Shown here: in pieces, positions 3,293 to 43,200 of the stretch
Position numbering within the stretch: the stretch's first letter is position 1
How the letters are laid out: each line of letters opens with the position of its first letter
Source: a virus
Lineage: Duplodnaviria; Caudoviricetes
DNA length: 62,400 nucleotides
IMG/VR virus record: IMGVR_UViG_3300030430_003380
Location: 1 to 62,400 of that record
Direction: 5' to 3' (one strand)
Notes under the pieces: model-generated
Told to the model about the DNA's origin: nothing
Databases searched by the model: none
The model's input: the letters and a program-made list of their open reading frames with translations, nothing else
Program-made: the position numbers and the translations under genes

Positions 3293-3498
3293 TACTTCTT
3301 TTTCTTACCACCTTCACCCCAGTTAGCAGCACCTACTTTTCTACACTTAGCCATTGCACCACTTCTATAAGCTGAAGTCTTAGGTCCGTATCTAGATACT
3401 ACTTTGTGGTAGCAAGCATCTTTTACAGAGCCACCTTTCTTCATGCTTTTAACTTTTTTCTTTCGCTTTACAGCTTTACAAGTGCAATTCTTTCCCAT
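3292..3498 (-). CDS. Small basic Cys-containing phage protein
   Basis: KDACYHKV..RY....SAY.SGA..KCRK motif common in aquatic phages; coupled stop/start. Confidence 0.7.
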   Translation of the reverse strand: MGKNCTCKAVKRKKKVKSMKKGGSVKDACYHKVVSRYGPKTSAYRSGAMAKCRKVGAANWGEGGKKKK

Positions 3499-3710
3499 TA
3501 TTTATTAGCAAATTTTTCTACGCCAGAAATGCCAAACGAGCCAAGAACAACCCATACAAATGAATCGTATACAAACTCGTTTATTACTAGGTCTGATCCA
3601 ACCCACCCTGTAACAAGGTCAGCTATCATTATCAAACACATTATTGCAAAAGCTATAAATCCAACTATAGCCTTTTCATTCCAAGCGTTATCGTTCTTAA
3701 ATATTTCCAT
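3498..3710 (-). CDS. Two-TM membrane protein, holin-like candidate
   Basis: Two hydrophobic helices, C-terminal GISGVEKF. Confidence 0.55.
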   Translation of the reverse strand: MEIFKNDNAWNEKAIVGFIAFAIMCLIMIADLVTGWVGSDLVINEFVYDSFVWVVLGSFGISGVEKFANK

Positions 3711-3711
3711 T

Positions 3712-3951
3712 TTATTCTTCTTCTTCTATATACCAATCTGACTTAGCCATTTCAATTTTTATCTCGTCATAAGTGTATGTTGTTTTACCACTTAAAAAAG
3801 ATGGCTGTTCTCCTTCATATTTTACTAAAGCTTTAGTACCGTCAAGACTGTATCTTAACATGTCAGCATTTCTATTTATAAGCTTAGAAAAATTTACAAC
3901 AGAGTTTTCATCTGTAATTTCTGTGGTATCTATTATAACGTATGTAACCAT
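3712..3951 (-). CDS. Conserved small protein downstream of LamG fibre gene (possible fibre chaperone/partner)
   Basis: LRYSLDGTKALVKYEGEQPSFL...YTYDEI...W motif; position after LamG gene. Confidence 0.6.
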   Translation of the reverse strand: MVTYVIIDTTEITDENSVVNFSKLINRNADMLRYSLDGTKALVKYEGEQPSFLSGKTTYTYDEIKIEMAKSDWYIEEEE

Positions 3952-22651: not shown

Positions 22652-25600
22652 TTATTTATAAGTATCTCCTATTGGTAATCTTAAAACCTTACCATGATCC
22701 CTCCACACTCTATTAATAATATGATCAGCTAGATGATTAGGCACTTTCAATTTATTAATCATAAGCTCTTTACTTTGATTTAAAGTATAGTGGTGAGCCC
22801 TTGCTGCAGCCACTAATACAGCCATCTGATCAACAAAGCCACTAAGATGTGGATCATAAAGAGGACTAAGTCTATTTAGTCTGCTATTTAGCTCATCCTG
22901 ATCGTACAAATTAAACTTCTCTCTGTTTAGTAAAGGTAGATTAATACCTTCTTCATAGAATATTTTATTACCTTTAGCTCTAGACTTAATCTTATTGAAC
23001 TGATCAGATAACTTAAACTGAGCTGATGTATCAGTATATATTCTACTTACTCTAAAACCAAGTAGTGCAGATATTTCATAAGAAACAACCCTTCTCTTGT
23101 CTGGATCAAAAGCATCATACAACTTAAACCCTTGCATAGCTGTAGAAGGTGCAAGCTTACCGCCAACGTATGTAACTACAGCAGGAATTATATCGTACCA
23201 TGGAGCTTCTTTATTGTATATTCTTTCAAACTCATTATCTCTAGCCTCTTGTATAGCGTTAAGAGTCATTTCCTCTGACAAGAATGGTTTGTATATTGTC
23301 TCTAGTATTCTAACTAAAGCGTCTTTACCATCTTTACTATCCACACCCTTAACAGCTATTCTAATCATATCTCTTATGTATCCTATACCAGACATCTTAG
23401 ACATGTTAACATAATCAACGTAAGGTCTACCTTGTTCATCTACACCACTACCTTTAGGTACTACGAAACCTGTTTGATCCCAATCAGGTTGTAATGCTCT
23501 TAGGTATCTTTTCTCAACCTCTTCGTCATCTCCTGCACCAAGTAACATTTGAAGCATCATTAGTTGTAAAGATTCTACAAGTGTTATTGTAGCTATAGAT
23601 GAGGCAAGTCTTGTTACACCCATTGATTTCAACTCTGGGTTACCACTACTCATCTCATTAAATGCTAGCATTACAGAGTTCTTAGCACATCTGATAGACT
23701 CAGCCTGGAATGCTACGAAGGTACCAACAAAAGGTGATCGACCTATGAATCTAATTATTCTAGGTATCTCATTATAGTTAGGGTAAGTGTTTCTTACATT
23801 CTCTGCGGCAACTAGGTCTGCCTCGTTTTCAGAAAGACCAGCTTTCATGTATTTTTCTTTCTCACTTAAAAATCCAAATATCTTAAATACATCATCTTCA
23901 GCTTGATACGCAGCAGTTAGTTTTTGATCTAATGTCTTTAACAACTTAGCTATATCACTTTCAGACTTGTTTGCAAAGAAAGTGTCAACATCAAAGTCTG
24001 CATCAGATAAATCTTTTGCTATACCTCTAATTTCTTGTAATGATGCAGACGAACTAACTACTCCAAGCTTGACTAGTTTTTTATAAAGATCTTTCATCTC
24101 AGGATCTTTAAACGTAGATACAGCTTGTATAGCTACCCTAGCAGAAGTAAACAACTTCTTACCATCCAAGTGACCATTCATTAACATGAAAGAAGAGTTA
24201 CCTATAATATTTCTTGTATGAGTACCAACACTCCAGATAGTCTTCATCTTTTTACCAAACATAACTACCTTCATGTATTGCTGATAGAAGTAGTTATCAA
24301 ACATATTCATCTTTCTATCAATCTCACTCAATACAGAGTACATCTCATCATCCAAGAAGTAACCATTTAAACTTCCAAATCTAGGATCTTTAACTTGGTT
24401 GTTAAACCCTTGATTTAATATCGCAGGTCTTCTACCAGATTCATCTGGTGGTGACAAGAATAATCCTTCACCAATATCTATAAGCTCTCTGTACATTTTA
24501 TCAGAGGTCACAGTTCTTGCTATCTTAGATATAGTATTTGTATAGTTGTAGAAAGGATCGTGTATCTCACCAAGTAAATCTCTAATCTCTACTGGTAGAT
24601 CTTCATTTCTAGCCATGAATATAGAACCAACTCTAGTTAATGCGTTACCAAAACCTTGTGAATAAGTCTGTATTCTTTCAGCTCTTGAAGTTTCATCTCC
24701 ATTCTGTATTATATCTAAGTCTTGTTTAGCAAAATCATAAGCCTCCTGCTCTGATAGTTCAGGATTTTTTTCCATATGAGCATTGGTCATAAAGTTCAAA
24801 GCTCTGTTAATTATCTTTTGATCTTCTTGCTTCCAACCCTTCTTCTCATACTGTCTGTATCTTCTTGTAAGATAAACACCAAGATTAGCATCAACCTTAA
24901 GAGTTGTAGGACCATCAACAATCTCCTCTCTAATTAAAGTTTTACTGAGCTGATCTATATGATCTCTCATGTTTATAAAAGCAGCTTTAAGTCTAGGGTT
25001 TCTTAACCTTAGTATCTTAGATCTGTCAGCTAAAAGCTCTGTGGCTTTTTGACCATCTATTTTTCTCTTACCAGAAACACTATTATTATATTCTATTATA
25101 GCAGCCTTAACTTCTTTAACGTTTTCACTAGCCTCAAACAACTCTTTATTTAAAGCACCTTGTGCCACAGTCATAAGGTCTTTAACCTCTTTACTACTAT
25201 GAGTACCAAATGGTTTTGCAAACAATCTAGATAACCTAACATCATACTGCTTGTCAGATATAGCCTTGAATGATGTAGCCCACCGACCTAAATCATAATC
25301 TCTTTCTATCATCATACGACCTATATCCCAAAGAACAGCAAAACCACCACGTCTATAAACAGTTCTACCTTGCTGGTTTGCTAGTTGGAATCTAGTTTTC
25401 GTATTAGATCTTACAGGTTCCCAAGTTGTAGCCATCTGTTTTCCACTATCATCAAACAAGAATCCTTGGAATCCTAATCCAGAGGCTAACTTAGCAATCT
25501 CTTCCATCTGATTGTAAGATACATCTTTAGACTTAACTTCTTTAGTATCTATGTTATCACAACAATCCTTAAGACTTTCTATCACTTCTTCAGATATATG

Positions 25601-28600
25601 CTCTGGGTAGTTAATCTTTACAGATAAACCTGTCTCTGTAGGTATAACTTCAGATGTATTTATGTGACCAAAGTTATCTGTATCTTCAAGAGCATGTCTA
25701 ACTAAGAATAAGCTAAGATTCATAGCATCCATATCCTTAGTTTCAAAGTTTAGGGTAGACTCCATTCTGTTTTCTGAATCCTTAAACCTATCTATATTGT
25801 AGTTAGCTACATCTCTTAGGTTTAGTGGATCCTTGTCTAGTGGATATAGTCTATCCATAGGGAACATAGATTTAACTTGAACGTCACCTATTCTTGAGTT
25901 TTCTTTTATATCAAGATTAGTATCAAAGAATGCTCTAGATCTAGACCACTTATTGTATTGTTCGTTAGAGAATGGTGTCATCTTCACGTTAGAAGGATCT
26001 ACCATCTCTGTATTTTCTGGAGCATAATGACTTAGAGATACCATGTTATCTATAATCTCCATATCTGGATACTCATTCTTAAGCTCCTCATAAGAGTCTG
26101 TAAGTTTAGCAAACTGTCTAGGATTTAAATTGCTAGTACCATTTTGATTAAGTTGGAACTTAGCTATACCTTTATTCTTGTGAGACTCCACCATATCCTG
26201 AGTTATAGGGAAGTTTCTAGCTCTCATTGGTTGTTTCTCTATAATCCCTCCACTTTCTAAATATTCAACAACTTTATCAGATAGTTTAAGTTTTGAAAGT
26301 AGGCTATTTCTATCAGCAACCAAAGCACCATCAATAGCAGCTTTAACTGGATTTATTAATTCTTTTAAATTAGATACGCCAATTTCTTGGGCTGACTCAG
26401 GAAATTCGTCAATTTTTTCTCTAATTGGCATAAGAAAACCATTTTGAAGATCATCTAAAAACGCTTCCTTACTCTCGTATATAGGAACAGACTCCACCTC
26501 TACGCTTTGAGTTATTCCCTCACCAACAGTTGTCCCTCCAAATGTTGAAATACGATTGACAAGTTTTTTACCTTTCGTGTATAGAGTTAAAACTTTACCA
26601 TCTTTCCTTAAACCTGTAGCATTACCAAGAAGCATGTCTATCTTTTGAACTGCAGTCCTAATCTCAACATCAGTTTCTACCTTAACTTCTTTTACAAGAT
26701 CTTCCCTTAGGTTACCTTTAGGACTCTCCATCTCATCTAACAAAACTGCTTCAACAGTATCTTGAAGGTATGTTTGAGTAATAAGGTTGTATAATTCATT
26801 ACTTATAGTACCATCCTCTTCAACCTGTATATCTATGAAGTCTAAAGGACTCTTACCTTCTCTCTCAAACTGACCTCTAACAATATTAGGTAGAGTATTG
26901 TCGTAGAAGTTTTTTAAACCTTCAGCTTGTTTACCCTCTGTAGGGACACCCTCTATCACCACACTCTCTTCACCAGTAATTAAAGCTACAGAGTCGTAAC
27001 CATTTTGTATAGCCACCTTCATTGCAGCTCTGACAGCTAGACCTGTATTCTTTGTTATATCACTCCAAGGGAAGTTAGGAACTCTATTTAAAACTTTAGT
27101 ATTCCTACTGAACTCTTTACGAACTTCCTCAAGATCTAAATCTTCTATTTTTTTCTCTAAAGCTTTTTTCTTAGAATTATAGTTTTCCCTCATAGAAACT
27201 ATCTCACGAGTTAAGCCATTAGCACGAGGATTAAATCCATTTAACTCCTCTGTAGTATTTAAACTAGAACCAAAATAAGTATCTAGTTTTGTCTCTAGCT
27301 CTGCAATCTTCCCATCATCTGGGGTAGTAGAGTTTATAAGTGTTGTTATTTGACTATCAAAATCTTCTAGTTCACGCTTATGTTGCTCTTCAAGACCGTC
27401 AAGAATTTGATCTCTAGTTGACTGAAGATCAATAATTTCATCGTAAAGTCTACTCTCTTCAACTTGTAATCTATCTATTTTAGCAGACAACTCACGACTC
27501 TTATCTCTAGCCTCAACTATATCTTTTAGTTCAGCAAAACCTTTCTTTCTACCTTCAGCCTCCCAATCAGATTGAACCTCTAGTATTAACAAAACTTTCT
27601 TACCATCCACAATCCTATCCTCTGTTCTAACAAATCCAACTAGGTTATCATTAAACCCAGTAAAGTGTCCACTGGTGTGGATTGTTTCACCTTTAGGGTT
27701 AAGGTTTATAAGTATGTTTTGAGGATTGTTTCTATCTTTTCTATTTCTATTTCTACCCCACGATACTGTAGCGTACTTAGAATTATATTTTTCTCTTAAC
27801 TCAGCTAAACTATTAACTCCAGGAAACAGAGATGACTTTGCTACAAAGTCAGATAGAACGATATACCTAACATCATTAGGCTCATTAACTCCACTATCTC
27901 TTATTGTTGTTGGCTCATTAGTGTTTAAAAAGTTTACAGCTATACCTGATAACCTGAAAGAATTAAGATCAAAGTCTTCATCAACACCTGTCATTTTGTG
28001 AGTTTCAATATCACCATTAGGCATTTTAATATCAAACGTTATATCGTAGGTAATATTTCCCTCATCATCAGGTACTCTTATATCTTTTTGAATTACACGA
28101 GAAACATTCTTCACAGTAACATCACCAAAATCTTTTTCTTCAATAACAAAGTTTTCACCTAATAAAGTAACCTCAATATCTGGAGTTAGGTTGTTAACTA
28201 ACACCTTTACATCTTCATATGTAGGATTCTTACCTGTAGTCTTAACTACGGTGTTCAAAGCCTCCTCTAAACCTGTAGATTTTATCTCATCACCAACACC
28301 CTTAACACCTGTGTCCTGCATTAACTTAATCCACTGCTTAACAGGTTTTCTAAACTTTCTACCTTTCTTAATTGTATTTAAGGTAGTGATTAAGTTAGAG
28401 TCAAAGTTCAGTGAGTTTCTTGCACTTAACTGAAACTTAGTTTCTTCTATGGTTATAGCATCAGGATCAAAGACAACATAGTTTCTAGCGTCACCTTCCT
28501 TATATGTCATACCATCTATACCAGCAGAAAGCATTAACATGGATGCTTCTTTCTGTGAACCTAGCTGACTCTCTAACTGTCCATAAAGTTGTGCTGTTGT

Positions 28601-31600
28601 AATGTTAGACTTCTCCTCAATCATGTAAGCTCTGTCAGCCTTACTAACTTTATCGTCACCAATCATCTCATCTACAATCTTCTCAACTGTTTCAACAGGA
28701 ACCTTAGAGTCCCAGTCTAAGTAGTCATACTCGTGATGTTGTTTTCCTGCGTGGAGTGAAACCTTAACTAAAGTACCAGCTCTTTTATAATTAGGTCTTA
28801 TATCATTGTTAGCCCAATCAAGAAGGTCTTGCGATGCTTCGTATTCAAATCTAAATTGATTTACTGCTGAGTCAAAATCAGACGTACCCTCTAGTAAATC
28901 TAAAAATATAGACTTCATCTCCATCTCTCTATAAGCTTCTTGAGATCTTACAGCACGAGCTTTATTCACCAACATAGTGTTGTACTCATGTACAGGCATG
29001 CTACCTATCTTATCATCTGCTGATGTAACTGATCCATCTCTATAACCTTTAGCTACTTCTTGCTCACTAGAGAAATAGAAACCATGACCATACTGAAGGT
29101 GACTCTTAATATAATTAGGGTTAAACTTGTCTATATTATTTGGACCACCATGATATAAATTACTTATTTGGAATCTACCAAACGCAGCATCACCGCCAGT
29201 AAAGTCATTAATAACATCTACGTTTGTTACAATACCACCATACATAGCAACATTGTAAGCTGACCTGTCTTGCTTATGCTTGAAAGGAATAGGTTTATTT
29301 TTCTTCTTTTCTGTCTCAGACATATAATTAGGAAAGGCTTCCTTTATATGAATAAACTTATTGAATATTTTGAAGTTACCTCCAGGTAAAACAAAAGGAT
29401 AACCAGGGTGATGACCAGCATCTCCCTCCTTAGTTTCTTTAATCGTAGCGTTAGTGTCTAAGTCTACAACACCAATAAGGTCACCCATTCTAGCATTCTC
29501 TATGAGTGGCTCGTTAACAAACTTTAATAAATCTTCAGGTCTAGGTAAACCAAGTTTTTTATTAAACTCAATCTTGTACAACTCTTGCATCACTTTGTTT
29601 CTATCACCAGTACCTATGGTTCTCATGTAGGCTTTAAACTCATCAAAGTTTTTAAACTTTTTCTTTGGTAAGTTTGTGTCTCTCTTTAATTTTTTTCTCT
29701 TACCTGTAACCTTATCTGTTTCCCAAAAATGATTAAGAACTGCAGCTTTATTAAAGGTGTTGTTTATCTGAGCTATAATTTCATTTCCAAACTTTTTATT
29801 GTTTTTTGATAAAGCTAACTCAACTTCTTTCTCAACATACTCTATAAAGTTTAAGTTTCCAGAAATAGAAGCGTTACTCATAGCCATAAAGACAACCTTT
29901 GTAACATCATCTTTTTTAAGTTTGTTTAGTAGGTTTTCAGCTTTAGACTTAGTAGTCCAAGCCCAACCTCCAGTGTCTTTCATCATAGGGTATAGTAATC
30001 CACCCATCATCTTATGCTTAACTCCAGTATCACTAGTTATATTACCAACTGAAGACCTGTCGATAGGAGCCACATAAACCTTTTCTCCATTTAAATCTAT
30101 AATAGATCCTACAGGAATATCTGTTTCTGAAAAATCAAATCTTTCTCTAAGCTGAAACTTAGATGGACCTCTATCAGATAGTAAATCTTCAGACACCTCT
30201 ACAAAGTCTGTAAGCATATCCTCACCAGCCTCAAGAGAGTTTTTTGTCATCGAATTATACTTAGCTTGGAACATTGCAACCTCTGTTGGCTCACCAACTT
30301 CAAACTCGTTTCCTGCTATGTTAATTTTCTTACCAGCTACGAAAGACTTAGCTAAACCTTTTTTAAGGTCACCTAGATTCTGTACAGTATCAAGTGTTAG
30401 ATCAAATATTTCACCATCAAAGTCAACGCCAAAGTAATGTTGTATAATATTCTTTACAGCCTGTTTTATTCTACCAAGAGTGCTTTGACTTCTTATAAAT
30501 TGATTTACAGCAGCATCACCCATCATCTCAGCAAAAGCTTCTTCAGTAAAGTATGCTCTCTTCTCTGCTGCAGACTTATCTTTTAAATAAGATGCAACCA
30601 TTTCGTTATTACCATACAACTGTTTAGCCCACTCGTAGTAAGACAACCTGATCCTTCTACCATCTTCAAGAACTATAAGCTTTGAATCTGATACTCCATC
30701 TGCTTTTCTTACAAGCTTTTCTATTTGTTTATATATCTTTCTACCTTCCTTTGTAGTCTTTAATTTATTTACCAAAGGATGTATTATCTCGTGGAACAAA
30801 GTATTACCTTGTATGTATTCCATGTTAAGATATATGGTGTCACCAAGGTAGAAAGCTGACTGACGAGAGTGACCAACTGGATCGTTGACCCCCTTTTGTG
30901 CTAGCATCTGAGCCATAGAGTCAGAGTTTCTAGCTATAGAGAAGTTAAGGTTACCTATAGATGATAACATCTTAACAATGAATCCTAATATTTTTTGTCT
31001 ACTATTAGGGTAGCCTTCAAAGAATGTAGCATCATAGTTTTCGCTAGTTGAGTCTAACTGATCCATGTTGTCAGCGTTAATATCCTTACCATGAACAGCC
31101 TCGTTTGTACCAAATCTTATAGAGAACTTTCTACCATTAGCATCTTTCATTATAAAGAAACTAGCACCATTTCTAGCGTCTGGTGATTTCTCTACAATAC
31201 CGTTTACAGACTGAACACTACCATTACTATTTAGAACACCTGTCTTACTTGAGAACACAGAAGTTTGACCAAAATTTCTACCCAGATTTAAAGCCTGAGC
31301 ATCTGTAAGCCCTTCAACCATGAACGATTCTTTAGACACTCCATTCTCTACAGTCCTAACAGTTTTATATTTAACTCCAAGGGCATCTAGCCTAGCCTTT
31401 AAGTTAGTAGACCTATTTTTGTTTTGCTCTGCAGTGTATCCATTCTTTTGCGATGATACAATATGGTAGTCTTTCTGTAAGTCATCTTGAGATACAGAGT
31501 CCATACTCTTAGCATCAGCTTTTCTAAACTCTAAGTTATTCTTCTTTACAAGCTCTGCCTTAGCATTCTCTTTAGCCATATCAGCTTTCTTCATCTCCGC

Positions 31601-34288
31601 CTGTCTGTGAGCCTCTAATAATTGATGTGCAGTTTCGTAATTTATGTTAGCAAACTCTATGGTGCCAACATCAGCACCAAGACCCTTACCTTGTTTACCT
31701 GAGTCTACAAGAACAGCAGTACCATCATGTTTTACAACAAACTCAAAAGTCCTATCCTGTAAAGCATCAAACTCTCTAGCACCTGTAGTAGCCTTAGCTT
31801 CTTTATCAGTTTGTTCTATATACTCTTCAAGTTTAGCTATCTGACTTTCTGTTAAAATCTTACCAAGCTGATTAACGTTTACACGAACAGCACTACCAGA
31901 TCCGACACCTGCTTCAGCTAACTTCTGTTCTACATACTCTATTCTGTTTTCGTTTATCTCTTTTTTGGTATACTCACCATCTTTATACTGAAACTTCTCC
32001 TCTGCTTCTTTCTGAAACTTTCTAGTCAAAGCTTTTTTTACAGCCTGAAACTCATCCTCTCCCTCTTTAGATACAGTGAATGAACCAGCTTGAAAGTCTG
32101 CAAGATTACCAATAGATATTCCTTTACTCTTTAAGAAAGAGTTTAATCTAGAGATAGTGCTTTCGTAAACTTTACTGGTAACAACAGTACCCTTATCAGC
32201 TATCAAAGCATCTATCTTAGATAAAGTCTCTTGTATACCATTTATTATATCAGCAGCACCACCATTCTTTACATTATTTTTATCTACAGATTCAATAGTT
32301 TTCAAGGACTTATCAAGTTCTTTAACCAACTCTAGCATAGAATCTCTAGCCTCCATAGCATCTTGACTGGTGTACCCCTCTAGTTTAGCTTTCATTTTAG
32401 CCTCTACTTCTGAGTCAATAGAGGTGTCAAACCCTATATCACCATTAGCTACAGCAGCTAAATTAGTTTCATCCTGAAAGAACAATAATGCATCCCTTCT
32501 AGTTAAAACTCTTTCGCTACCTGTCTTGTTATCAGTTATAGTTATAGAAGCTAAATTTTCTAAATCACCACTAATATCCTTCATAAAAGAATACCTAAGT
32601 TGTCTACTACCAATAACACCACCCATACCTGCACCAAGAATACCAGCATCAGTAACCTTCATTACAGCGTCAACGAAACTCTCTGGGGTACCAGCACCTG
32701 TTATAGCGTCATTAAGGATATTAGTAACCTCTGTACCCATCTCTGACCCAGCTTCCATACCCATGCCCTTGAAGTAATTTTTAACAAAGTTTTCTGACAT
32801 CTCCGTTGGAACATCAACTAACTTCATTTTACGCAGCTTACGCATAGTGTTTATATACTGGTAGGTAGGTATTTCAAATATCATCTCAGCACCACCACTA
32901 ACCATAGAGTTTATAGCTATCATAAGGGTACTCATGTCTACCTCACCTCTCTCTCTCATGTCCTTAAGGTCTAAAGACTTTTGACCATAAGCACTGGTAC
33001 CCATAGCACCTAAAGTTATACGCTGTGCTGCAGTTGTAGACAATCCAGCAGCTCCAAGAAACGCACCACCAGCATACATAGATAAGATCTGTGGTGCTGT
33101 TTGTGCTAAACCATTTCCAAACTGAGCTATAGCGTTACCAATGTTACCCTCTGTTAAAGATTCTGTAATACCATCAAACTCATAAGCTCTAGTTTTTTTC
33201 ATCCAAGATTCAGAACTCTCTTTAAGTGATCTTGCTATCTCACCACCATATCTATTGTAAGCTGTTATATTGTAATTGTTCATAGAGCCATAAGCAAGGA
33301 TTCCCTCTAAAGGCTCTATAATACCAGCAAGTAAACCTAGACTACCGCTAGCAAAAGAGTCAGCTAAATCACTAAACTGACCACCAGCCTCTAACTGTCT
33401 CTGATATAGGTTATTAAGGTAAGCACCCATCTCACTATTCTCAACCATTATAGGAGATATGTAGACATCATTCTTACCTTCTTGAAGGTCGTCTACAAAA
33501 TCTTGGTCTAACAAAGACTCCTTCATCTCTACAGGACTAACGTTTTTACCGTTAATCTTGAAGTGTTCCATCTGAACAAAAGTCTCATCTATACCCCTTT
33601 CTTTGAGGACATCCTCAATCTCACTTGGAGCATAGTTAATTACAGCATCATTAAAGTTTTGGGTGTTATAAGCTATGTCAGCTTCCTTAAACTCTTCTTT
33701 AAATAAATCTATTCTAGAGTTTAGAGTAGATAATTTATTATCGTTCATACGAGCATCAGAACCATAAGGATCCTTCTCTAACTTCATTTGCAACTCTCTT
33801 TGTTGCTTTAAAAGTTCTTGATAATATCGGTAATCTACACCGTAGTTTTCATACCATTGAGCCTTATATTCTTCTGTAGTTGGTACTTTTGATTGCTCTT
33901 CTTGTTCAAGCTTAACTTGTTTTTGCTTAAACCTATTCTCTGCAGATTCTAAAAGATAGTCTGAGTCTTCCGATTGAGATGTAATAGGTTCTTGATCTTG
34001 ATCCATGCTGACTTCCATAGTAGGCTCCGCATCTGAAGAATCTTTTTTTTTTACATCTTCTTGTGAAACATCTTGCTTAGGTTGTTGCTCTTTAGGTTTT
34101 TGTTCAACCCCCATAAGACTAGCAAAATCTTCTAAGCTATCTTCATAACCGTCTTGTTTAAATAAACCATAAGAGTGCGACAAAGCCTCTGGGTTTTCAG
34201 ACATAAGTATTTTAAATTCATCTAAACTATCACTATATCCATCTTTAGTGAATAAATCGTAGGCATACTGAATTGCTTCTTCGTTCAT
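22652..34288 (-). CDS. Giant polyvalent virion/ejection protein (zincin HExxH, DUF3293-like, ART-PolyVal-like, LPD38-like C-terminus)
   Basis: FHEIIHP...EEAFAE; LYHG...YGHGFYF...AGIDG...YVVFDP; VRNTYPNY...PFVGTFVAF; last gene of tail/ejection block. Confidence 0.85.
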   Translation of the reverse strand: MNEEAIQYAYDLFTKDGYSDSLDEFKILMSENPEALSHSYGLFKQDGYEDSLEDFASLMGVEQKPKEQQPKQDVSQEDVKKKDSSDAEPTMEVSMDQDQEPITSQSEDSDYLLESAENRFKQKQVKLEQEEQSKVPTTEEYKAQWYENYGVDYRYYQELLKQQRELQMKLEKDPYGSDARMNDNKLSTLNSRIDLFKEEFKEADIAYNTQNFNDAVINYAPSEIEDVLKERGIDETFVQMEHFKINGKNVSPVEMKESLLDQDFVDDLQEGKNDVYISPIMVENSEMGAYLNNLYQRQLEAGGQFSDLADSFASGSLGLLAGIIEPLEGILAYGSMNNYNITAYNRYGGEIARSLKESSESWMKKTRAYEFDGITESLTEGNIGNAIAQFGNGLAQTAPQILSMYAGGAFLGAAGLSTTAAQRITLGAMGTSAYGQKSLDLKDMRERGEVDMSTLMIAINSMVSGGAEMIFEIPTYQYINTMRKLRKMKLVDVPTEMSENFVKNYFKGMGMEAGSEMGTEVTNILNDAITGAGTPESFVDAVMKVTDAGILGAGMGGVIGSRQLRYSFMKDISGDLENLASITITDNKTGSERVLTRRDALLFFQDETNLAAVANGDIGFDTSIDSEVEAKMKAKLEGYTSQDAMEARDSMLELVKELDKSLKTIESVDKNNVKNGGAADIINGIQETLSKIDALIADKGTVVTSKVYESTISRLNSFLKSKGISIGNLADFQAGSFTVSKEGEDEFQAVKKALTRKFQKEAEEKFQYKDGEYTKKEINENRIEYVEQKLAEAGVGSGSAVRVNVNQLGKILTESQIAKLEEYIEQTDKEAKATTGAREFDALQDRTFEFVVKHDGTAVLVDSGKQGKGLGADVGTIEFANINYETAHQLLEAHRQAEMKKADMAKENAKAELVKKNNLEFRKADAKSMDSVSQDDLQKDYHIVSSQKNGYTAEQNKNRSTNLKARLDALGVKYKTVRTVENGVSKESFMVEGLTDAQALNLGRNFGQTSVFSSKTGVLNSNGSVQSVNGIVEKSPDARNGASFFIMKDANGRKFSIRFGTNEAVHGKDINADNMDQLDSTSENYDATFFEGYPNSRQKILGFIVKMLSSIGNLNFSIARNSDSMAQMLAQKGVNDPVGHSRQSAFYLGDTIYLNMEYIQGNTLFHEIIHPLVNKLKTTKEGRKIYKQIEKLVRKADGVSDSKLIVLEDGRRIRLSYYEWAKQLYGNNEMVASYLKDKSAAEKRAYFTEEAFAEMMGDAAVNQFIRSQSTLGRIKQAVKNIIQHYFGVDFDGEIFDLTLDTVQNLGDLKKGLAKSFVAGKKINIAGNEFEVGEPTEVAMFQAKYNSMTKNSLEAGEDMLTDFVEVSEDLLSDRGPSKFQLRERFDFSETDIPVGSIIDLNGEKVYVAPIDRSSVGNITSDTGVKHKMMGGLLYPMMKDTGGWAWTTKSKAENLLNKLKKDDVTKVVFMAMSNASISGNLNFIEYVEKEVELALSKNNKKFGNEIIAQINNTFNKAAVLNHFWETDKVTGKRKKLKRDTNLPKKKFKNFDEFKAYMRTIGTGDRNKVMQELYKIEFNKKLGLPRPEDLLKFVNEPLIENARMGDLIGVVDLDTNATIKETKEGDAGHHPGYPFVLPGGNFKIFNKFIHIKEAFPNYMSETEKKKNKPIPFKHKQDRSAYNVAMYGGIVTNVDVINDFTGGDAAFGRFQISNLYHGGPNNIDKFNPNYIKSHLQYGHGFYFSSEQEVAKGYRDGSVTSADDKIGSMPVHEYNTMLVNKARAVRSQEAYREMEMKSIFLDLLEGTSDFDSAVNQFRFEYEASQDLLDWANNDIRPNYKRAGTLVKVSLHAGKQHHEYDYLDWDSKVPVETVEKIVDEMIGDDKVSKADRAYMIEEKSNITTAQLYGQLESQLGSQKEASMLMLSAGIDGMTYKEGDARNYVVFDPDAITIEETKFQLSARNSLNFDSNLITTLNTIKKGRKFRKPVKQWIKLMQDTGVKGVGDEIKSTGLEEALNTVVKTTGKNPTYEDVKVLVNNLTPDIEVTLLGENFVIEEKDFGDVTVKNVSRVIQKDIRVPDDEGNITYDITFDIKMPNGDIETHKMTGVDEDFDLNSFRLSGIAVNFLNTNEPTTIRDSGVNEPNDVRYIVLSDFVAKSSLFPGVNSLAELREKYNSKYATVSWGRNRNRKDRNNPQNILINLNPKGETIHTSGHFTGFNDNLVGFVRTEDRIVDGKKVLLILEVQSDWEAEGRKKGFAELKDIVEARDKSRELSAKIDRLQVEESRLYDEIIDLQSTRDQILDGLEEQHKRELEDFDSQITTLINSTTPDDGKIAELETKLDTYFGSSLNTTEELNGFNPRANGLTREIVSMRENYNSKKKALEKKIEDLDLEEVRKEFSRNTKVLNRVPNFPWSDITKNTGLAVRAAMKVAIQNGYDSVALITGEESVVIEGVPTEGKQAEGLKNFYDNTLPNIVRGQFEREGKSPLDFIDIQVEEDGTISNELYNLITQTYLQDTVEAVLLDEMESPKGNLREDLVKEVKVETDVEIRTAVQKIDMLLGNATGLRKDGKVLTLYTKGKKLVNRISTFGGTTVGEGITQSVEVESVPIYESKEAFLDDLQNGFLMPIREKIDEFPESAQEIGVSNLKELINPVKAAIDGALVADRNSLLSKLKLSDKVVEYLESGGIIEKQPMRARNFPITQDMVESHKNKGIAKFQLNQNGTSNLNPRQFAKLTDSYEELKNEYPDMEIIDNMVSLSHYAPENTEMVDPSNVKMTPFSNEQYNKWSRSRAFFDTNLDIKENSRIGDVQVKSMFPMDRLYPLDKDPLNLRDVANYNIDRFKDSENRMESTLNFETKDMDAMNLSLFLVRHALEDTDNFGHINTSEVIPTETGLSVKINYPEHISEEVIESLKDCCDNIDTKEVKSKDVSYNQMEEIAKLASGLGFQGFLFDDSGKQMATTWEPVRSNTKTRFQLANQQGRTVYRRGGFAVLWDIGRMMIERDYDLGRWATSFKAISDKQYDVRLSRLFAKPFGTHSSKEVKDLMTVAQGALNKELFEASENVKEVKAAIIEYNNSVSGKRKIDGQKATELLADRSKILRLRNPRLKAAFINMRDHIDQLSKTLIREEIVDGPTTLKVDANLGVYLTRRYRQYEKKGWKQEDQKIINRALNFMTNAHMEKNPELSEQEAYDFAKQDLDIIQNGDETSRAERIQTYSQGFGNALTRVGSIFMARNEDLPVEIRDLLGEIHDPFYNYTNTISKIARTVTSDKMYRELIDIGEGLFLSPPDESGRRPAILNQGFNNQVKDPRFGSLNGYFLDDEMYSVLSEIDRKMNMFDNYFYQQYMKVVMFGKKMKTIWSVGTHTRNIIGNSSFMLMNGHLDGKKLFTSARVAIQAVSTFKDPEMKDLYKKLVKLGVVSSSASLQEIRGIAKDLSDADFDVDTFFANKSESDIAKLLKTLDQKLTAAYQAEDDVFKIFGFLSEKEKYMKAGLSENEADLVAAENVRNTYPNYNEIPRIIRFIGRSPFVGTFVAFQAESIRCAKNSVMLAFNEMSSGNPELKSMGVTRLASSIATITLVESLQLMMLQMLLGAGDDEEVEKRYLRALQPDWDQTGFVVPKGSGVDEQGRPYVDYVNMSKMSGIGYIRDMIRIAVKGVDSKDGKDALVRILETIYKPFLSEEMTLNAIQEARDNEFERIYNKEAPWYDIIPAVVTYVGGKLAPSTAMQGFKLYDAFDPDKRRVVSYEISALLGFRVSRIYTDTSAQFKLSDQFNKIKSRAKGNKIFYEEGINLPLLNREKFNLYDQDELNSRLNRLSPLYDPHLSGFVDQMAVLVAAARAHHYTLNQSKELMINKLKVPNHLADHIINRVWRDHGKVLRLPIGDTYK

Positions 34289-37223: not shown

Positions 37224-40200
37224 TTATTTATTACTGAGCTCACTCTTGTCTACATCTACGTTTGCAGCGTATAAGTTAAACTTATATTTAGATTGATACC
37301 AGTGAGATGTAAGTATTGTTTTAAGGTAGTGACCCTTAAGTTTTTCACCATCTATAAGCCCTTCTTTAACTATAAAGTAAAACTTACGACCTTGGAGACT
37401 ACTGTAGTTAACCGTAGAAATAAAGTCAACACTATTCTCTGATATGTTATAAACCCAACCCGAATGAGTGGTCTCTCCAGTTTTAGTATCCATACAATGT
37501 AAAGAATATTCACATGGGTAAACAGATGCATTTGACTTAGATGATGTTCCGTTTTTAGCTACAAAAATACCACTAGGTGGATTTACTTTTTGAACCCTTA
37601 ATTTAGTTATACTAAATTCAGGTTGATTAATAGTTGTTTTTATATATAAATAAGGATCAAGATTAATATCACCAGATGTTATTTCAATAGAAAAATTTCT
37701 ATTAGTATTTCTAGAATTAATTGTAATAGTTTCAAACCCTGTATTTTTAGATGGCAAACCCAAACTTCCACTTAAATTAGTTTCACCACCAAGTCTGAAA
37801 GATAAATTAATATTACCTCTTTGTATTCTTTCTGTTTTAACATGAAAAGAAATTATATAAGTAGATCCAGAACTAAAATTTAAAGAAGAAGTTGTTCTTA
37901 CCTGAGAAAAAGCGTTTTGTTTACTAAAATGTAAAACGTTACCACTGCTATTTTTATTTTCTTGAACTTTAACTCCTGCATTTAAAACAGTCCAATCAGA
38001 GGCGTTTGAAAAGCTTCCTTTATTGGAAAGAATATCATCACCAACTGTATTTTTGCTTTTAATATTAAAAACTTCTTCAAACTTAAAATCTCTTTTTACA
38101 TTATAAATACCATATATACCTCCAGGTATTATATTAGAAACAGACACAACCTTATTACCAATAAAAGGAAATTTGTTTATTTCAAAACGACCATTAAGAG
38201 AAAAACTACCACCAGAATACCTCCTTGCATTAAAAATACCCAATCCAAAAATATTAGAAGCATCTCCATTAAAGTCACCTTGAAGCTCACCATATCCCTG
38301 TATATTAAATTTACTTGCAGCAAAAGGAATTTGAGAATATTGAATACCTTCTTTTGTTTTATAATCAATAACATCAATTCTATTATTTTTTGATATATGA
38401 TTAACAGTATTATCTAAAGTTATTTTTTGTTTTGTTAAAATATTTTTAACTACATTGTATTGAGCTGAATCATTTTCGCTATTATAAAACCTAATTAAAT
38501 CTCCTGGAGCTAAATCTTTGTAAAAGTTAGATGAAGATGTACCATAAAGACAATAAGGTGAGTTTGCCTGTGTAGATATAAGACCATCAACTTTTTTATA
38601 ACCTATTTGAGTAGATATAACAGAGTCATAAGAGTTATTATGCTGACCCATGTTTGTAGACATATTAGTTAAAAGTTTTGTGTCACTCTCTAAAGATATA
38701 GCATTATAAGTTTTTACAGACGAAGTATCTGAGTTAAAAGGAAACTCTATATTTGAGTTATATCTAATACCATAAAAAGTATTAAAGTTAGATCTATTTT
38801 CTGTATTGTGTTTATATATTTTACCATTTTTATATGTAACAAATTGTCTATTTATTTTACCGTAAAATTCTGGTTTGTAACTATAAAAAGATGTCCATTT
38901 TTTTAGGGTATCATTAAAAGATATGGTTTTAGAAGGATCGTAACCTTCAATAAATACATTTTCAATTAAAGAGTAGGACTCATCAAAATTAACATTACTA
39001 GATCCCCAAAAGCCAGAATTTTCGTAACCTTCAGTTTTTAAAACCCTTGGTAGCGTGATTATATATTCATCATACTTAGGGTCATACCCAGCAACAATTT
39101 TAATATTTTCAACTTTTTCCTCTACATACTTTTGACTTTTATCTCTAAAATAATCGGACATTCCATAGTCAGATATTCTTGTTATACCATCTCTACTAAG
39201 TCTTAGAACAGAACCTCTCTTTATATCTACAAAATAAAATCTATCGTTATTCTCAACTATACTCTCAGGATTAAGGCTACATCCATTTTCTGCAGAATAC
39301 ACCTGAGCATAGTCAGCTAGTATATCTTTAGACAGAGTTAGGTTAGAAGCACCATCAGCATAATTAACTATATTCTTGCCAACCAAAGTTCTACCTACTC
39401 TATTCTCGTGAAATATTAAAAGATCATCACCCTTAATCATTAAAGATTGTATTGACCCAAAGTCTTGATTATAGTCGTAATATGGAGATATTGCCATGTC
39501 AAAAGTACTAAAACCATTAAAATTACCTGTGCTGGTAAAAACATCAGAGTAATATACTGAGGCTGACAGCCTTCTTTCCTCAGAGTAAGGGTTTACTATA
39601 TTAACCCTACCCTTATCCCAGTTGTTAGAATTATAAAAGTCTGTTAGGTAATAGCTCTCGCAAGCAAAAACTTGAGGTGCAATACCTGTAGTATCAGCTT
39701 CACCTTCACTATTAACAGCAGCATCTTGATGATGAAGAGTCATAACCCTTCTTCTAGTGTAAACATCACCATGAAGTAAAGTTCCCTCTGCAAAGTTTGT
39801 AGTGCTGTTTCCACTATCATCAATAGGTCCCTGTAAACCATCTATAGCTGTAACCTCCATTCTAGACTCCTCGTCAAAAAAGTAATCAGAACCTTGACCC
39901 TGATGGGATCTAAAATCAGTTCCTGGATTCTCTATCTCAAATTTTTCACCTACCTCATAAAACAAACCAGAAACTTCTGATTGTATAGATTTTTTAGGTC
40001 TATATATCTCTACTATAAGCTTGTGATAACCATTATGAGAAAAATCATCGTCAGTATGATCAACTTGAGAGTGATCAACAGCTATACTCCCATCAATATT
40101 TCCATCATTTGATATAGAAAAATCTATATCGTTATTAGCATCTGTAGGGCTATCTATAACAATGTAAAATCCTGGAATAAGGTTAGATCCTCCAACAGCA

Positions 40201-43200
40201 TCCTGAATCTCTTCTCTAGTGTAAAAATCATAAGATGATATAGGGACATCTATATTCTCTTTAAAATACCTCCTATTGTCTTCATTACCACCACCAAAAG
40301 ATATATATCTAACTCTATCTCCTTTTGCGTAAACATAATCTATTATAGCTGACGTAGAGTCTATATAACTATCCACATCAACACTTTCTTCACTCAATCC
40401 TTTTAATGATCCTAACCCTAAGTATATTTTATTATCTTGATTACCAGTTCCTTTATACGAGTTTAATATAGGGATTTGTATAAACTCATCTATAGTAGTG
40501 TTACCAGAGTAAACCCATTGATAATGAGTTGCCCATACTGGAGGCTTGTGATATATCTTCCACTCAAGACCATTAAATGTACTTTGAGGCTGAGCAATCT
40601 CAGTATAAAAAGGTGCGTAAACGTTTGTGCCTGAATTAAAAGTGTTTATAGCTTTTGATGTATTAACAAAAGAAGCCCTATTTGTCTCGTCATAGTACAC
40701 TAAACCAAAACCATGATTAGCTCCAGTCTTATAAGACTTACCAAAAGAAGGTGCACCACTATAAGTAGATCTTGAAGAAGTAAGCCCACCATGAAACATA
40801 TTTGTAGTACCACCTGAGCTAGTTCCCTTACCTGCGAAATTTAGATTAGCAGTAGTACCTATAGCAGTTTCAGAATAATTAGTATCATTTGTTATTATAT
40901 CAATTCCTACAGAATCAGGTAGTGGGTCATAATTTTCTGGATAAGTAAAAGTTATAGACAATTTTTTAGTAGACGAATTGTAAGACGCTACTGTTAAATC
41001 ATGCACAGGTAGGGTTTGAACATCATTATATATAGCTGATCCTCCATCTATAAAGTAACCAAAACTAGTATCTAAAAAAAAGTCTCCAACGTTAATTCTC
41101 TCTTCAAGGTGCAAACCTATGTCGTCAACACTACCAGGATTAAATATAGACGATTCATGCGTAAAATTACCACCCCTTGGAATAATACTTGATTGACCAG
41201 GAGCTTGTCCATGATTTTGAAATAAAGTTTTAACCCAATTATATCTTAAATTTATAATACCATCACCACCGTTTGTTTCTGGGTCTAAAGGTTGTAGATT
41301 AAAGCTAACTTTAAAAACAGTGCTAATAACTGGACCACCTGCATTTATCACTTCAAAATCAGGAGCATTAGTATAATTCCCATTTTGACCACCTCCACTA
41401 ATTTTATTTATAAACTGAGTCTCAGCATCTAAAGTAGTTACAGGCTTTATCTGCAGATTGCAGTATATATCTGTATTATCATATCCATCAACAACGTTAC
41501 CATACGCTATTCTATTTTTAGGCAATATGGTTTGAGCTTTTGCTAGTTTAGGTAAAGCATCTTGAAGCTTGTCAATATCTGTTTTAGATACAAAAGGGTA
41601 GACACCATCATTCCTAAATATTGCAGTTGAAAACTTAACATTAGCCTGAATAGCTCCACCAAAAAATAAACTAGGGCTAGTTAAAAGAGATTCGTTCTTT
41701 CTTCTTTTTAAATACTTTATAAAGTCATTAGGTATAGTTTCTATAAGAAAAAACTCACCATCATTACCATCCCTAGCTACAACCTCTACCTTATCTACAT
41801 AAGATATGCTATCGTTATATTTTATGTTTATAATGTTATTTACAGCATTATTAATAGTAGTGTTGTCTTCACCAGTAATATATCTCTTGGTGTAAACACT
41901 TTGATTAGCTACATCTGATATACCACTGTAAGCCGATACAGTACCATCTTTATAAACATATCTATATCTAAACTGAAAAAACTTACCAACTATATGATTT
42001 ACCCTAGCTGGCTCTTTATTAAAAGAAAACTCTGGTTTATACCTTGGTTGATGAGATAAAGCGTCAAGATATATCATCTTATCTTCAAACTCTCCAAAAC
42101 TAATTAGAGGAGAGTAGGCATCATCAGGCTGTGCATGTAGTACCTTACCCCCAGGAGATGTTGGTTCTAAATCAATAAAAGGAGTATTAGTTATAATACC
42201 ATTATTAGTTTTTAAATCAGCGTTAAACGATGATAAATCAAAATTAGTCGTACTTATACTAAAGTTAGACCACTTAGTAGTAGCCTCAAAAGTATGTGTA
42301 TTAACTATAAAATCAACTTCAATAAAGTATGGATTACCGTTAACTACAACGCAAACAAAATCACCAGCAAATAAATCTTTAGTAGGATTTTCACCCTGCA
42401 TTGAAACAGTTTTGTCGTTAAAAGTTAGAGTAACAGAAGTTGTTCCTTTTCCAAAGGGTTTAATAATATCAACAGCCTTAGCGTAACCATTATATCCTTT
42501 ACCTAATAAAGCTGGAGATAGAATCTCAAACTGTTGAAGGTATAAATGATCGTTTTTCTTAAAAGGATGATTGTTAGTTACACCAATTAATACAGTCCTT
42601 TCTTCTTTTATTTCTTTTAACGATATATTACTTATAGTTATATCAATGCCATGCTTATTTCTTTTAATTACAAAATAAGTGTTTTTAGAATAATATTTAG
42701 TTTTGTGGGTACCAACAGTTGTTTTTATAGCAATTTGTTCAGCTTCATCGTCAGCAGTATAAGTAGCTAATCCATTATCTTTATTACTACTGTCTATATC
42801 ATAAGAAAGCTCGTAATATTTTCCAGGAGTTACTACACCTGCCTTTAATATGTTTATATCTGTCGACCCTGAAGCTTCTGTAATAAATCTAAAACTTCCA
42901 GTGTCAGAAGAAATTACATTAGAGGTTTCACCGTTTATAGTGTTATCACCATCAACAAATCTAATTTGCCAATTATTATTTGAAATAATTTCACGACCTA
43001 AAATGAAATCATTTAATATTCCTTGAAACGTAGGACCAAGTTTTATATACTGCTCGTTTCTTTTAGCCTTTTCTACATCAATTTTTCTAGGTCTATTAAA
43101 ATTATCTGTAAAGTAAAGTATGTCTTCAACTTTATTAATACCAGTTATTAAATGATCTTTATCAAAGTTTAAAACACCTTCAGTGACCCCATTACTACCT

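Follow-up and report, generated by a model that had tools for sequence, protein, structure and literature searches.

RNA-virus polyproteins carry their protease in the same chain; the 3C, 3C-like and NIa proteases cut after Gln with a small or aliphatic residue next, and sites and protease co-evolve. These enzymes are chymotrypsin-like Cys/Ser proteases, and spacer peptides occur in viral polyproteins. T4 gp21 and phiKZ gp175 are separate prohead proteases that cut capsid-packed, ejected internal proteins at short consensus sites; capsid and scaffold proteins are substrates too, and the sites end in Glu. For DdrB and DarA of phage P1, we know of no cleavage site. Anthrax lethal factor and the Pro-Pro endopeptidases form what we take to be peptidase family M34. 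Lethal factor has basic residues upstream and cuts before an aliphatic one, with one site reading ...TLQ/LP... (PMC3153234, Table 1). For polyvalent proteins of phages and conjugative elements, Iyer, Burroughs, Anand, de Souza and Aravind (2017, PMC5512222) have already proposed autoproteolytic release of domains by a zincin, and they describe P1 DdrB, with its C-terminal zincin, as processed before packaging. The parts of that paper dealing with cleavage, junctions, boundaries, linkers and shuffling describe no junction or cleavage-site motif (PMC5512222), and we found no published description of a junction motif such as the one reported here.

The window analyzed here, the whole 62.4-kb stretch of DNA, is an IMG/VR record that represents a whole virus genome (99% complete), in which one giant gene, P0001, stands at the end of the structural gene module (Table 1). 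Like the proteins of Iyer et al. (2017, PMC5512222), P0001 is a giant phage protein, presumably entering the host along with the DNA, with a zincin-like domain, an ART-PolyVal-like domain and domains of unknown function: DUF3293, the zincin, a PUA-like domain (domain X), ART-PolyVal and a virion domain are found together in one 3878-aa phage ORF. The C-terminal domain, common to 96 giant proteins, matches PHROG 22602 and, by tblastn, gp123 of Cellulophaga phage phi18:3 (23% identity, E 2e-31), which is annotated as a virion structural protein from MS/MS of virions. The best explanation is that P0001 would be a 'polyvalent' polyprotein packaged in the virion, the source being, as part of the same explanation, an uncultured podovirus-like phage of marine Bacteroidota. 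Elsewhere in this genome, the ORF between the portal and capsid genes resembles an acidic scaffold, and many ORFs are without a family match.

Table 1. Features of the giant ORF, in window coordinates
Feature	Position	Strand	Residues	Remarks
Giant ORF (P0001)	22652..34288	-		single ORF, 3878 aa, 18.6% of the 62.4-kb genome
N-terminal region	31469..34288	-	1-940	kept in relatives
DUF3293 (PF11697)	31256..31435	-	952-1011	30.5 bits vs cut-off 25
Zincin-like metallopeptidase domain	30284..31036	-	about 1085-1335	
HEIIH	30779-30793	-	1166-1170	
EEAFAE	30527-30544	-	1249-1254	
MFQA	30263-30274	-	1339-1342	degenerate first post-zincin junction, M for K/R
Acidic spacer, 34 residues	30161..30262	-		between the two post-zincin sites; pLDDT about 28
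KFQL	30149-30160	-	1377-1380	junction spacer / domain X
Domain X	29177..30148	-	1381-1704	PUA-like (YTH/ASCH-type) core with helical insert
RFQI	29165-29176	-	1705-1708	junction domain X / ART
ART-PolyVal-like ADP-ribosyltransferase module	28439..29164	-	1709-1950	
KFQL	28427-28438	-	1951-1954	junction ART / M3
Module M3	26162..28426	-	1955-2709	coiled-coil-like middle
KFQL	26150-26161	-	2710-2713	junction M3 / M4
Module M4	25394..26149	-	2714-2965	
RFQL	25382-25393	-	2966-2969	junction M4 / C-terminal domain
Conserved C-terminal virion domain	22655..25381	-	2970-3878	
KFNL	22907..22918	-	3791-3794	motif-like; probably not a junction

All six FQ motifs of the initial annotation were recovered in this ORF at residues 1339-2969, five as [KR]FQ[LI] and one as MFQA, every one C-terminal of the HEIIH...EEAFAE zincin. 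The positions given for them were the low ends of the motifs, MFQA alone being off by 3 bases, and the estimate of blocks of about 250-900 aa holds, with measured lengths of 324, 242, 755, 252 and 909 aa. Of the zincin signature, HEIIH lies where it had been placed; EEAFAE, assigned to the same span, lies elsewhere (Table 1). In P0001, [KR]FQ[LI] occurs 5 times against a mean of 0.121 in shuffled sequences (0 of 2000 shuffles reach 5) and [KRM]FQ[LIA] 6 times against 0.216 expected (0 of 2000 reach 6), the pattern having been picked post hoc, after the data had been seen; it is replicated in the relatives. Bare FQ is found 13 times against 6.7 expected, a count reached by 2.25% of shuffles. 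The motif is not shared by several head proteins: the rest of the genome, taken as the 45 other ORFs that reach 90 aa or more (14,929 aa together), has one [KR]FQ[LIVA] in all, and it falls in a 112-aa thioredoxin-like ORF.

That the motifs lie at domain boundaries is borne out at five of five sites by the limits of homology and at two by predicted structure. The first post-zincin site, MFQA, occupies the position of FEVG-x(8-12)-[KR]FQ[LV]D in relatives and reads VFQA in P0002 and TFQA in L003; its region has an AF2 pLDDT under 50, and the linker around MFQA and the first KFQL one of about 28. The same two-site layout, with a spacer of 29-37 residues, is also present in relatives such as P0018 and P0003. 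The first KFQL aligns with RFQA/RFQP of P0003-5, and homology to domain X in distant proteins begins at residues 1374-1384. In the AF2 model its K and F have pLDDT under 50 and Q-L-R-E (1379-1382) forms a short strand at the edge of domain X, a domain that is itself modeled confidently (pLDDT 81.4, pTM 0.78; VIA rows with Z 5.3-6.9). RFQI falls in a segment of pLDDT <50 (AF2 model residues 340-356), and the upstream context is common to P0001 and P0043 as far as RFQIS, after which P0043 diverges. RFQI and the second KFQL bracket the ART-like module, as had been noted: a 248-residue BLAST match to P0006 (30% identity) covers exactly residues 1705-1952. Scanned by itself, the module reaches 32.2 bits with Pfam ART-PolyVal (PF18760), which the comparable domain carries in other relatives; the cut-off is 31.2, and only profile positions 9-47 of 140 are matched. 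A scan of the whole of P0001 gives 21.4 bits. Since stand-alone ART-PolyVal proteins end in ...IEI[LV]RKYG[LVI], the domain itself may account for part of the pattern that follows the ART module. M3 is homologous to a module of the relatives that ends ...TPELKAATDKVGPLRFQ, and the KFQL closing M3 has its counterpart in P0003 as RFQA at 2460. The last junction is found in all zincin-bearing relatives among those listed, as [KR]-x-Q (or S/N/K) and then an aliphatic residue; it lies 8-10 residues ahead of the point where the C-terminal domain has its conserved start, and at least eight unrelated upstream contexts precede it. KFNL, in a conserved stretch of that domain, corresponds to KFS[LI] in P0043/P0099/P0049, and the other relatives whose sequence covers this place read F/Y-D-[ILF]; it is probably not a junction.

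Upstream of the series, residues 1-940 gave no match in family searches and contain three Gly-rich hydrophobic stretches (312-335, 455-473 and 541-559). A second Pfam scan, of residues 901-1340 with E up to 5, returned DUF3293 (33.5 bits) and a weak DUF484 and no peptidase model, and a profile search of the zincin against PDB sequences returned no peptidase at a meaningful E. In alignment A1, H89, E90 and H93 of HExxH never vary among the 14 relatives and lie in a predicted helix (84-99); E172 and E177 of EEAFAE, likewise invariant (14/14), lie inside predicted helix 163-191 and provide a candidate third metal ligand of the gluzincin type. A zincin fold has a helix, a three-stranded sheet and two helices, and the AF2 model (core pLDDT 70-87, mean 58.7) has a zincin-like order of helices and strands. 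Its top VIA fold rows, zincins or domains derived from them, are lethal factor, Certhrax, PprI and PPEP, at modest Z values of 4.9-6.2. Foldseek against the PDB gave nothing at E <=0.001 (best E at least 0.13), and a BFVD search gave three rows with E <0.001, all of them large phage structural or polyvalent proteins. Sequence comparison shows this zincin in none of the collection's cultured phages.

Replication was sought among giants, taken as proteins of at least 1900 aa, the zincin group being those with this zincin and HExxH. The 53 zincin-bearing giants contain 105 [KR]FQ[LIVAMP] against 9.6 expected and the 66 giants without this zincin 12 against 14.4 expected, in groups whose counts are not phylogenetically independent. 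Across 27 related viral loci, 72 motifs are found in 76,858 aa of giant ORFs, whereas the remaining stop-to-stop frames, counted from 150 aa upward and totaling 65,447 aa, contain 10. The larger clade of relatives has the motif as [LI]-[RK]-[FM]-Q-[AV]-P. Of 122 contexts, 89 have A, V, L or I at P1', often then Pro, with K/R at P3 and Gln at the third position imposed by the search pattern. Seven of the 53 zincin-bearing giants are without the strict motif, and their junctions, where inspected, read RNQA, KYQV, REQN, RMQA, REQV and TFSL; P2 is not fixed, since junctions such as RNQA, KYQV and REQN occur. The cultured relative elemoC gp20 has one RFQA only. In distant giants that carry other zincins, domain X is bordered by Q/[ILV], which suggests that the junction code may be widespread.

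That the motifs may also mark points of cassette exchange, as the initial annotation proposed, is strongly supported by sequence comparison across 57 relatives. Unrelated upstream and downstream contexts recombine at the motif, the 127 distinct sites representing 52 upstream and 56 downstream context families in 79 pairings. In P0004, a 247-aa insertion begins directly after IRAQA and closes with GLRFQA. Internal BLAST ends fall within 5 residues of a motif in 25.3% of 10,900 cases (13.9% of 4,213 unique ends), versus 1.1% of random positions. Breakpoints that coincide with the motif would also be left if the motif had no common function and were a remnant of linkers copied with the modules, kept by chance or as recombination microhomology, and stretches such as ATT AGA ATG CAG GCT CCT do recur among the sites. 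We regard this as very improbable, given that the contexts before P4 are unrelated and that synonymous codons vary at every motif position. Even the five sites of P0001 differ in synonymous codons, and over 72 sites TTC is used 25 times and TTT 24, CAA 43 and CAG 29, indicating selection at the protein level.

Comparison of close and sister lineages points the same way, against a mere remnant. P0001, P0002 and L003 have five [KR]FQ[LI] each, and although the flanks change, P0002 (84% identical over residues 1300-3000) and L003 (80% identical in the zincin region) retain every one of the 15 K/R-F-Q positions. P0049 and L014, in contrast, have six [KR]FS[LI] each and zero FQ, and P0099 at the corresponding junctions has three FS, one FN and TFSL, with zero FQ; one FS site in each of these three is the C-terminal intradomain site, probably no junction. 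For each site the switch takes two base changes or more, and both Ser codon families are in use. This concerted FQ-to-FS change in a sister lineage points to one shared recognition factor. A common reader is not necessarily a cutter, and the motif could stay uncut as a docking or linker element for one partner (the zincin cleft acting as a binder, a chaperone, or the machinery of packaging or ejection) that keeps or threads the beads in order; indeed, the N4 virion RNA polymerase, itself a carrier of a peptidase domain of this kind, enters the virion uncut (Iyer et al. 2017, PMC5512222). We consider docking unlikely. The motif looks like a typical protease site, with Gln at its third position (fixed by the pattern), then an aliphatic residue and often Pro, and the conserved two-site spacer after the zincin resembles the spacer peptides of viral polyproteins. 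In P0052, the one relative without cargo modules, HExxH has been lost (SQVIH), which fits a role of the zincin in processing.

The reading we favor is that one common factor would recognize the junction motif (basic, Phe, Gln, aliphatic) and that this reader would most likely be the zincin of the same chain. The chain runs from the N-terminal region through DUF3293, zincin, short spacer, PUA-like domain, ART and two modules to the C-terminal virion domain, and we infer that the zincin would cut after Gln (P1), ahead of the aliphatic P1' residue, turning the modules into separate proteins. Indirect support for cutting by the zincin comes from the restriction of the motif to this protein, its enrichment alongside this zincin clade, the protein-level selection, the concerted FQ-to-FS change and the likeness of the sites to those of lethal factor, the zincin's best fold match. 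Each module would have its own site at its C-terminal end, so that insertion, loss or swap at the motif would keep processing intact, which would explain the cassette shuffling. We judge the chances evenly balanced that the embedded candidate zincin cuts after Gln and before an aliphatic residue, thereby freeing ART and the other modules. Release had been placed after injection; cutting within the capsid is equally possible.

Alternatively, another protease, from the host or an unrecognized phage prohead enzyme, may cleave the motifs while the zincin has another task, acting for example on host proteins or peptidoglycan. Dead or altered zincins are found together with motif-like junctions: P0052 retains IKRQLP at the only junction it has, HDIVH replaces HExxH in P0049 and yet six KFSL/RFSL are kept there, and P0006, without any HExxH, has RYQV and RFAT around its ART domain. 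The FQ-to-FS switch across a lineage could follow a change of host, and the many unmatched ORFs leave room for such an enzyme. However, prohead proteases normally also cut capsid, scaffold or portal proteins, and the near-confinement of the motif to P0001 does not fit this expectation. The scaffold-like ORF between the portal and capsid genes also counts against this reading. The motif enrichment, moreover, tracks the zincin clade, and apart from an M15 endolysin no peptidase was found by Pfam among the 43 ORFs scanned. We therefore hold cleavage by another protease to be quite unlikely.

Cleavage by the built-in zincin would set P0001 apart from several described systems. Unlike T4 and phiKZ, in which separate enzymes act on several head proteins, the motif here is confined to one protein, and neither Pfam (43 ORFs) nor PHROGs (19 ORFs) revealed a prohead protease gene, in a genome with many unmatched ORFs. 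P1 DdrB/DarA has a single cut where P0001 has a series of junctions, and no homology between them was found. Like lethal factor sites, those of P0001 are basic upstream and aliphatic at P1', and the zincin model compares with the lethal factor N-domain (Z 6.2), its catalytic domain (Z 4.9) and PPEP-3 (Z 5.0), values that indicate at most a common arrangement. No sequence similarity to lethal factor or the Pro-Pro endopeptidases is detectable and, unlike in lethal factor, the substrate would be the zincin's own chain. In contrast to the zincins of Iyer et al. (2017), that of P0001 matches no Pfam peptidase model, and in contrast to their proteins P0001 has a junction motif of 4-6 residues that changes in concert and lies at cassette breakpoints. 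The likeness to RNA-virus polyproteins consists in beads on a string with a Gln-type motif at each junction and a candidate protease in the same chain; the differences are that this candidate is a zincin in a DNA-phage structural gene and that it would yield injected effectors, not replication machinery. It is possible, though we lean slightly against it, that marine phages have true polyproteins in their giant virion proteins, under a protease-site code whose P1 residue, Gln in one lineage and Ser in another, co-evolves with the built-in zincin. If so, effector modules would be plug-and-play cassettes, and these proteins would be a DNA-phage counterpart of RNA-virus polyproteins.

The gene for P0001, the giant protein of this phage, is a single uninterrupted frame for 3,878 aa that takes up 18.6% of the genome, and the module anatomy that we propose for its product is listed in the table below. 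All six motif positions in the initial annotation, and its HEIIH/EEAFAE pair, agree with the sequence of the ORF, and its motif observation is confirmed: [KR]FQ[LI] occurs five times in P0001 against 0.12 expected, a count reached in 0/2000 shuffles. In the other 45 ORFs of the genome, [KR]FQ[LIVA] is found once in 14,929 aa. Since the pattern was chosen after seeing the data, its replication in relatives weighs more. All five sites are kept in the closest relative, P0002 (84% identity over residues 1300-3000), and in more distant relatives (about 30% identity) RFQ[AVP] appears three or four times, in differing contexts. MFQA was considered as a chance match, as it first seemed unconserved, but it occupies the same position as the first post-zincin junction of the relatives and is kept as a degenerate junction site.

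Proposed module anatomy of P0001 and positions of other features discussed in the text
Feature	Residues of P0001	Window positions	Strand
Giant ORF (P0001)		22652-34288	minus
N-terminal region with Gly-rich hydrophobic stretches	1-940		minus
DUF3293	952-1011		
Zincin	about 1085-1335		
MFQA	1339 on		
34-residue spacer	1343-1376		
KFQL	1377 on		
Domain X (PUA-like)	1381-1704	29177-30148	minus
RFQI	1705 on		
ART (ADP-ribosyltransferase module)	1709-1950		
KFQL	1951 on		
M3	1955-2709		
KFQL	2710 on		
M4	2714-2965		
RFQL	2966 on		
C-terminal virion domain	2970-3878		
Two post-zincin motifs with spacer	1339-1380	30161-30274	minus
KFNL (set aside)	3791-3794	22907-22918	minus
804-aa ORF ending in Por_Secre_tail		316-2730	minus
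2,068-aa ORF		37224-43430	minus
1,338-aa ORF		43441-47457	minus
189-aa ORF with Cpn10 domain		58234-58803	minus

Relatives were collected with two queries: the C-terminal domain retrieved 96 giant proteins, and the zincin module, run against 1.84 billion representatives, retrieved 46. Among giants of at least 1900 aa, the 53 with a zincin of the P0001 type and an intact HExxH contain 105 [KR]FQ[LIVAMP] where 9.6 are expected, and the 66 without such a zincin contain 12 where 14.4 are expected; these proteins share ancestry, so the counts are not independent trials. Four more proteins match the zincin without HExxH in the matched stretch. In two of them (P0055 and P0056) HExxH is present and its apparent absence is an artefact of the stretch chosen; in P0049 and P0052 it is truly absent. 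The strict motif is missing in seven zincin-bearing giants, whose inspected junctions read RNQA, KYQV, REQN, RMQA, REQV or TFSL. Across 122 distinct contexts, with P3, P2 and P1 fixed by the search pattern, the consensus is L/I at P4 (76/122), R (81) or K (41) at P3, F (80), M (26) or Y (16) at P2, Q at P1, A/V/L/I at P1' (89/122) and P at P2' (52/122). The cultured Flavobacterium phage elemoC_14-1A encodes gp20 (L032:16921-28005), a 3,694-aa structural protein that combines DUF3293 with HEIFH (residue 1543) and, 140 residues on, TSRFQA; gp20 shows no overall enrichment of the motif (1 RFQA against 0.54 expected) and is a possible experimental system. In P0107-P0127, distant giants with another zincin, domain X starts with Q followed by I, L or V in about 12 of 20 distinct contexts. 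The pattern R[KRQE]Q[QKR], chosen post hoc, occurs 16 times against 4.4 expected in 18 distant giants, at the borders of domain X, and may represent a different junction code, which we regard as a lead.

The initial annotation also proposed that the motifs are cassette exchange points, and the sequence comparisons strongly support such a role at module borders, because contexts recombine, an insertion is bounded by the motif and BLAST ends cluster there. More informative than the group counts are the contexts: the 127 distinct sites combine 52 upstream and 56 downstream context families in 79 different pairings, with eight different upstream families preceding one and the same downstream module start. 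Compared with P0003, P0004 carries a 247-residue insertion that starts directly after IRAQA and ends in GLRFQA. In pairwise comparisons of 57 relatives, 25.3% of 10,900 internal BLAST-match ends lie at most 5 residues from [KR][FYM]Q, against 1.1% of random positions; when each end is counted once (4,213 ends), the share is 13.9%. A crude module map gives 39 module orders among 57 proteins.

These borders coincide with domain edges as far as homology and predicted structure define them. Distant proteins show homology to domain X from residues 1374-1384 to near 1690, the ART match to P0006 covers residues 1705-1952, and in all zincin-bearing relatives listed [KR]-x-Q-aliphatic stands 8-10 residues ahead of the conserved start of the C-terminal domain, whichever module precedes it. 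AlphaFold modelling of the zincin region from 14 sequences gave a mean pLDDT of 58.7, with 70-87 in the core and about 28 in the tail that contains MFQA and KFQL. The model of residues 1365-1720 (20 sequences; pLDDT 81.4, pTM 0.78) falls under 50 at model residues 1-14 and 340-356, which places the whole RFQI at 1705, and the K and F of KFQL at 1377, outside the predicted confident fold; Q-L-R-E of the latter forms a short edge strand. The claim that the motifs are domain boundaries rather than parts of folded domains is thus supported by prediction at the two modelled sites, and at the other three it is given by homology limits only. The motif behind ART may in part belong to the ART domain itself, because stand-alone ART-PolyVal proteins end in RKYG plus an aliphatic residue at their C terminus.

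A DNA-level repeat or recombination signal as the motif's cause is rejected on account of synonymous codon variation: the five sites of the window differ in synonymous codons, and 72 sites in 27 viral loci use both Phe codons and both Gln codons about equally. Selection acts at the protein level. A sister lineage shows Ser in its junction motifs in place of the Gln of P0001. P0049 and the viral locus L014 carry [KR]FS[LI] six times each and P0099 has three FS, one FN and TFSL, all with no FQ, and P0001, P0002 and the locus L003 have five FQ each; one FS site in each of P0049, L014 and P0099 is a C-terminal intradomain site and probably no junction. Both Ser codon families are represented at the switched sites, and therefore the switch is not gene conversion. 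We disfavour the idea that unrelated modules each have their own structural cap, because such caps would not switch jointly. A common factor reading every junction site is implied, and would explain the change from Gln to Ser in concert. KFNL near the C terminus of P0001 was set aside as a further site, as it lies within a conserved stretch and breaks this Q/S lineage rule; it aligns with KFS[LI] in P0043, P0099 and P0049, and with F/Y-D-[ILF] in other relatives having residues there.

The candidate reader would be the zincin of the same chain, and we consider a putative cut by this zincin after Gln the best explanation of the junction motif, with an even chance of being correct. HExxH, together with two Glu of a helix further along the chain, is invariant in 14/14 aligned relatives, and the order of predicted secondary-structure elements fits a zincin. 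In fold, its model comes closest to domains of anthrax lethal factor and to Certhrax, PprI and Pro-Pro endopeptidases, with modest Z values (4.9-6.2). Foldseek against PDB gave no E of 0.001 or better, no Pfam peptidase model matched, and a profile search against the sequences of PDB chains gave no meaningful match; in BFVD three matches lie under 0.001, all to large phage structural or polyvalent proteins. In 50,697 phage records searched by tblastn, nothing matched the zincin module, and the middle region had two weak matches. Besides the zincin and the endolysin, no protease was found among 43 ORFs of the genome. Substrates of lethal factor are cut ahead of an aliphatic residue and have basic residues upstream (PMC3153234, Table 1), a site logic that the junction motif shares. 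P0052 (2176 aa) is the sole relative without cargo modules between zincin and C-terminal domain, and its HExxH has decayed to SQVIH, a single case that fits a zincin with a cargo-release task. There is, however, counter-evidence: the single junction of P0052 is still IKRQLP despite SQVIH, P0049 keeps its sites despite HDIVH, and P0006 lacks HExxH, yet RYQV and RFAT flank its ART domain. Since the chain must reach the capsid before its cargo is freed, the putative cut may take place in the head or follow ejection.

The C-terminal domain of P0001 is related to phi18:3 gp123, a protein detected in virions by MS/MS. In P0001, P0018 and P0003 the zincin is followed by two junction motifs with an acidic spacer of 29-37 residues between them, and a small spacer peptide would result if both were cut. 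In many distant giant phage proteins, a zincin and, about 160-215 residues further on, domain X form a conserved pair. Domain X has a confident predicted fold (pLDDT 81.4) with a helical insert; it had no usable match in the protein atlas and no E of 0.001 or better by Foldseek against PDB, and its 13 PDB matches with Z of at least 5 (Z 5.3-6.9) are YTH, ASCH or McrB-N-type domains and PH1033. YTH, ASCH and McrB-N-type domains are readers of modified bases, and PH1033 is presumably of the PUA-like class. M3 matched only unnamed clusters in the protein atlas, at 0.79. A search for stand-alone or split ART modules gave eight shorter proteins, two of them cut copies of P0001 itself, with no informative split at a motif.

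With its 62,400 bases, the window represents a complete virus record (estimated completeness 99%). Its gene products include a terminase, a portal and an SU10-type capsid protein, together with several very large virion proteins; a DnaB-type helicase and an M15 endolysin are also encoded, and an ORF for an acidic, scaffold-like protein stands between the portal and capsid genes. We infer a Bacteroidota host, because the nearest terminases listed come from Flavobacterium, Cellulophaga, Maribacter and Tenacibaculum phages (129 matching records, best at 48% identity) and one 804-aa ORF carries at its end a Por_Secre_tail domain (E 5e-13), the C-terminal sorting domain of type IX secretion. Such a domain is unusual in a phage protein. 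A GroES-like Cpn10 domain (E 2e-13) is found in a 189-aa ORF, and related elemo phages carry GroES and GroEL genes. Neither of the two giant ORFs upstream of the polyprotein gene matches Pfam or contains a junction motif; in the 1,338-aa ORF there are seven bare FQ dipeptides, none in motif context.

If confirmed, the zincin and its site could provide a new sequence-specific protease tool, and the Gln/Ser lineage switch offers a natural experiment on the co-evolution of protease and site. The motif would also explain how injected effector modules are exchanged with the carrier left intact, and gives a rule for splitting unannotated proteins of 2,000-4,000 residues into functional units for annotation and structure prediction. 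Polyvalent proteins were defined by Iyer et al. 2017 (PMC5512222), who proposed processing by their own zincins and whose passages on cleavage, domain junctions and shuffling give no site motif. A 2026 preprint on phage phi24B (bioRxiv 10.64898/2026.04.10.717836) describes a 2,811-aa polyvalent virion protein, and its sections on that protein do not address processing. In the open-access literature searched, no account of such a motif at the domain junctions of phage polyvalent proteins came to light. Autoprocessing has thus been predicted since 2017 without a known site, and a defined motif makes the prediction directly testable. The carrier protein and the idea of autoprocessing are already known; what is new is the junction code, with its concerted evolution and its role as a border between cassettes.
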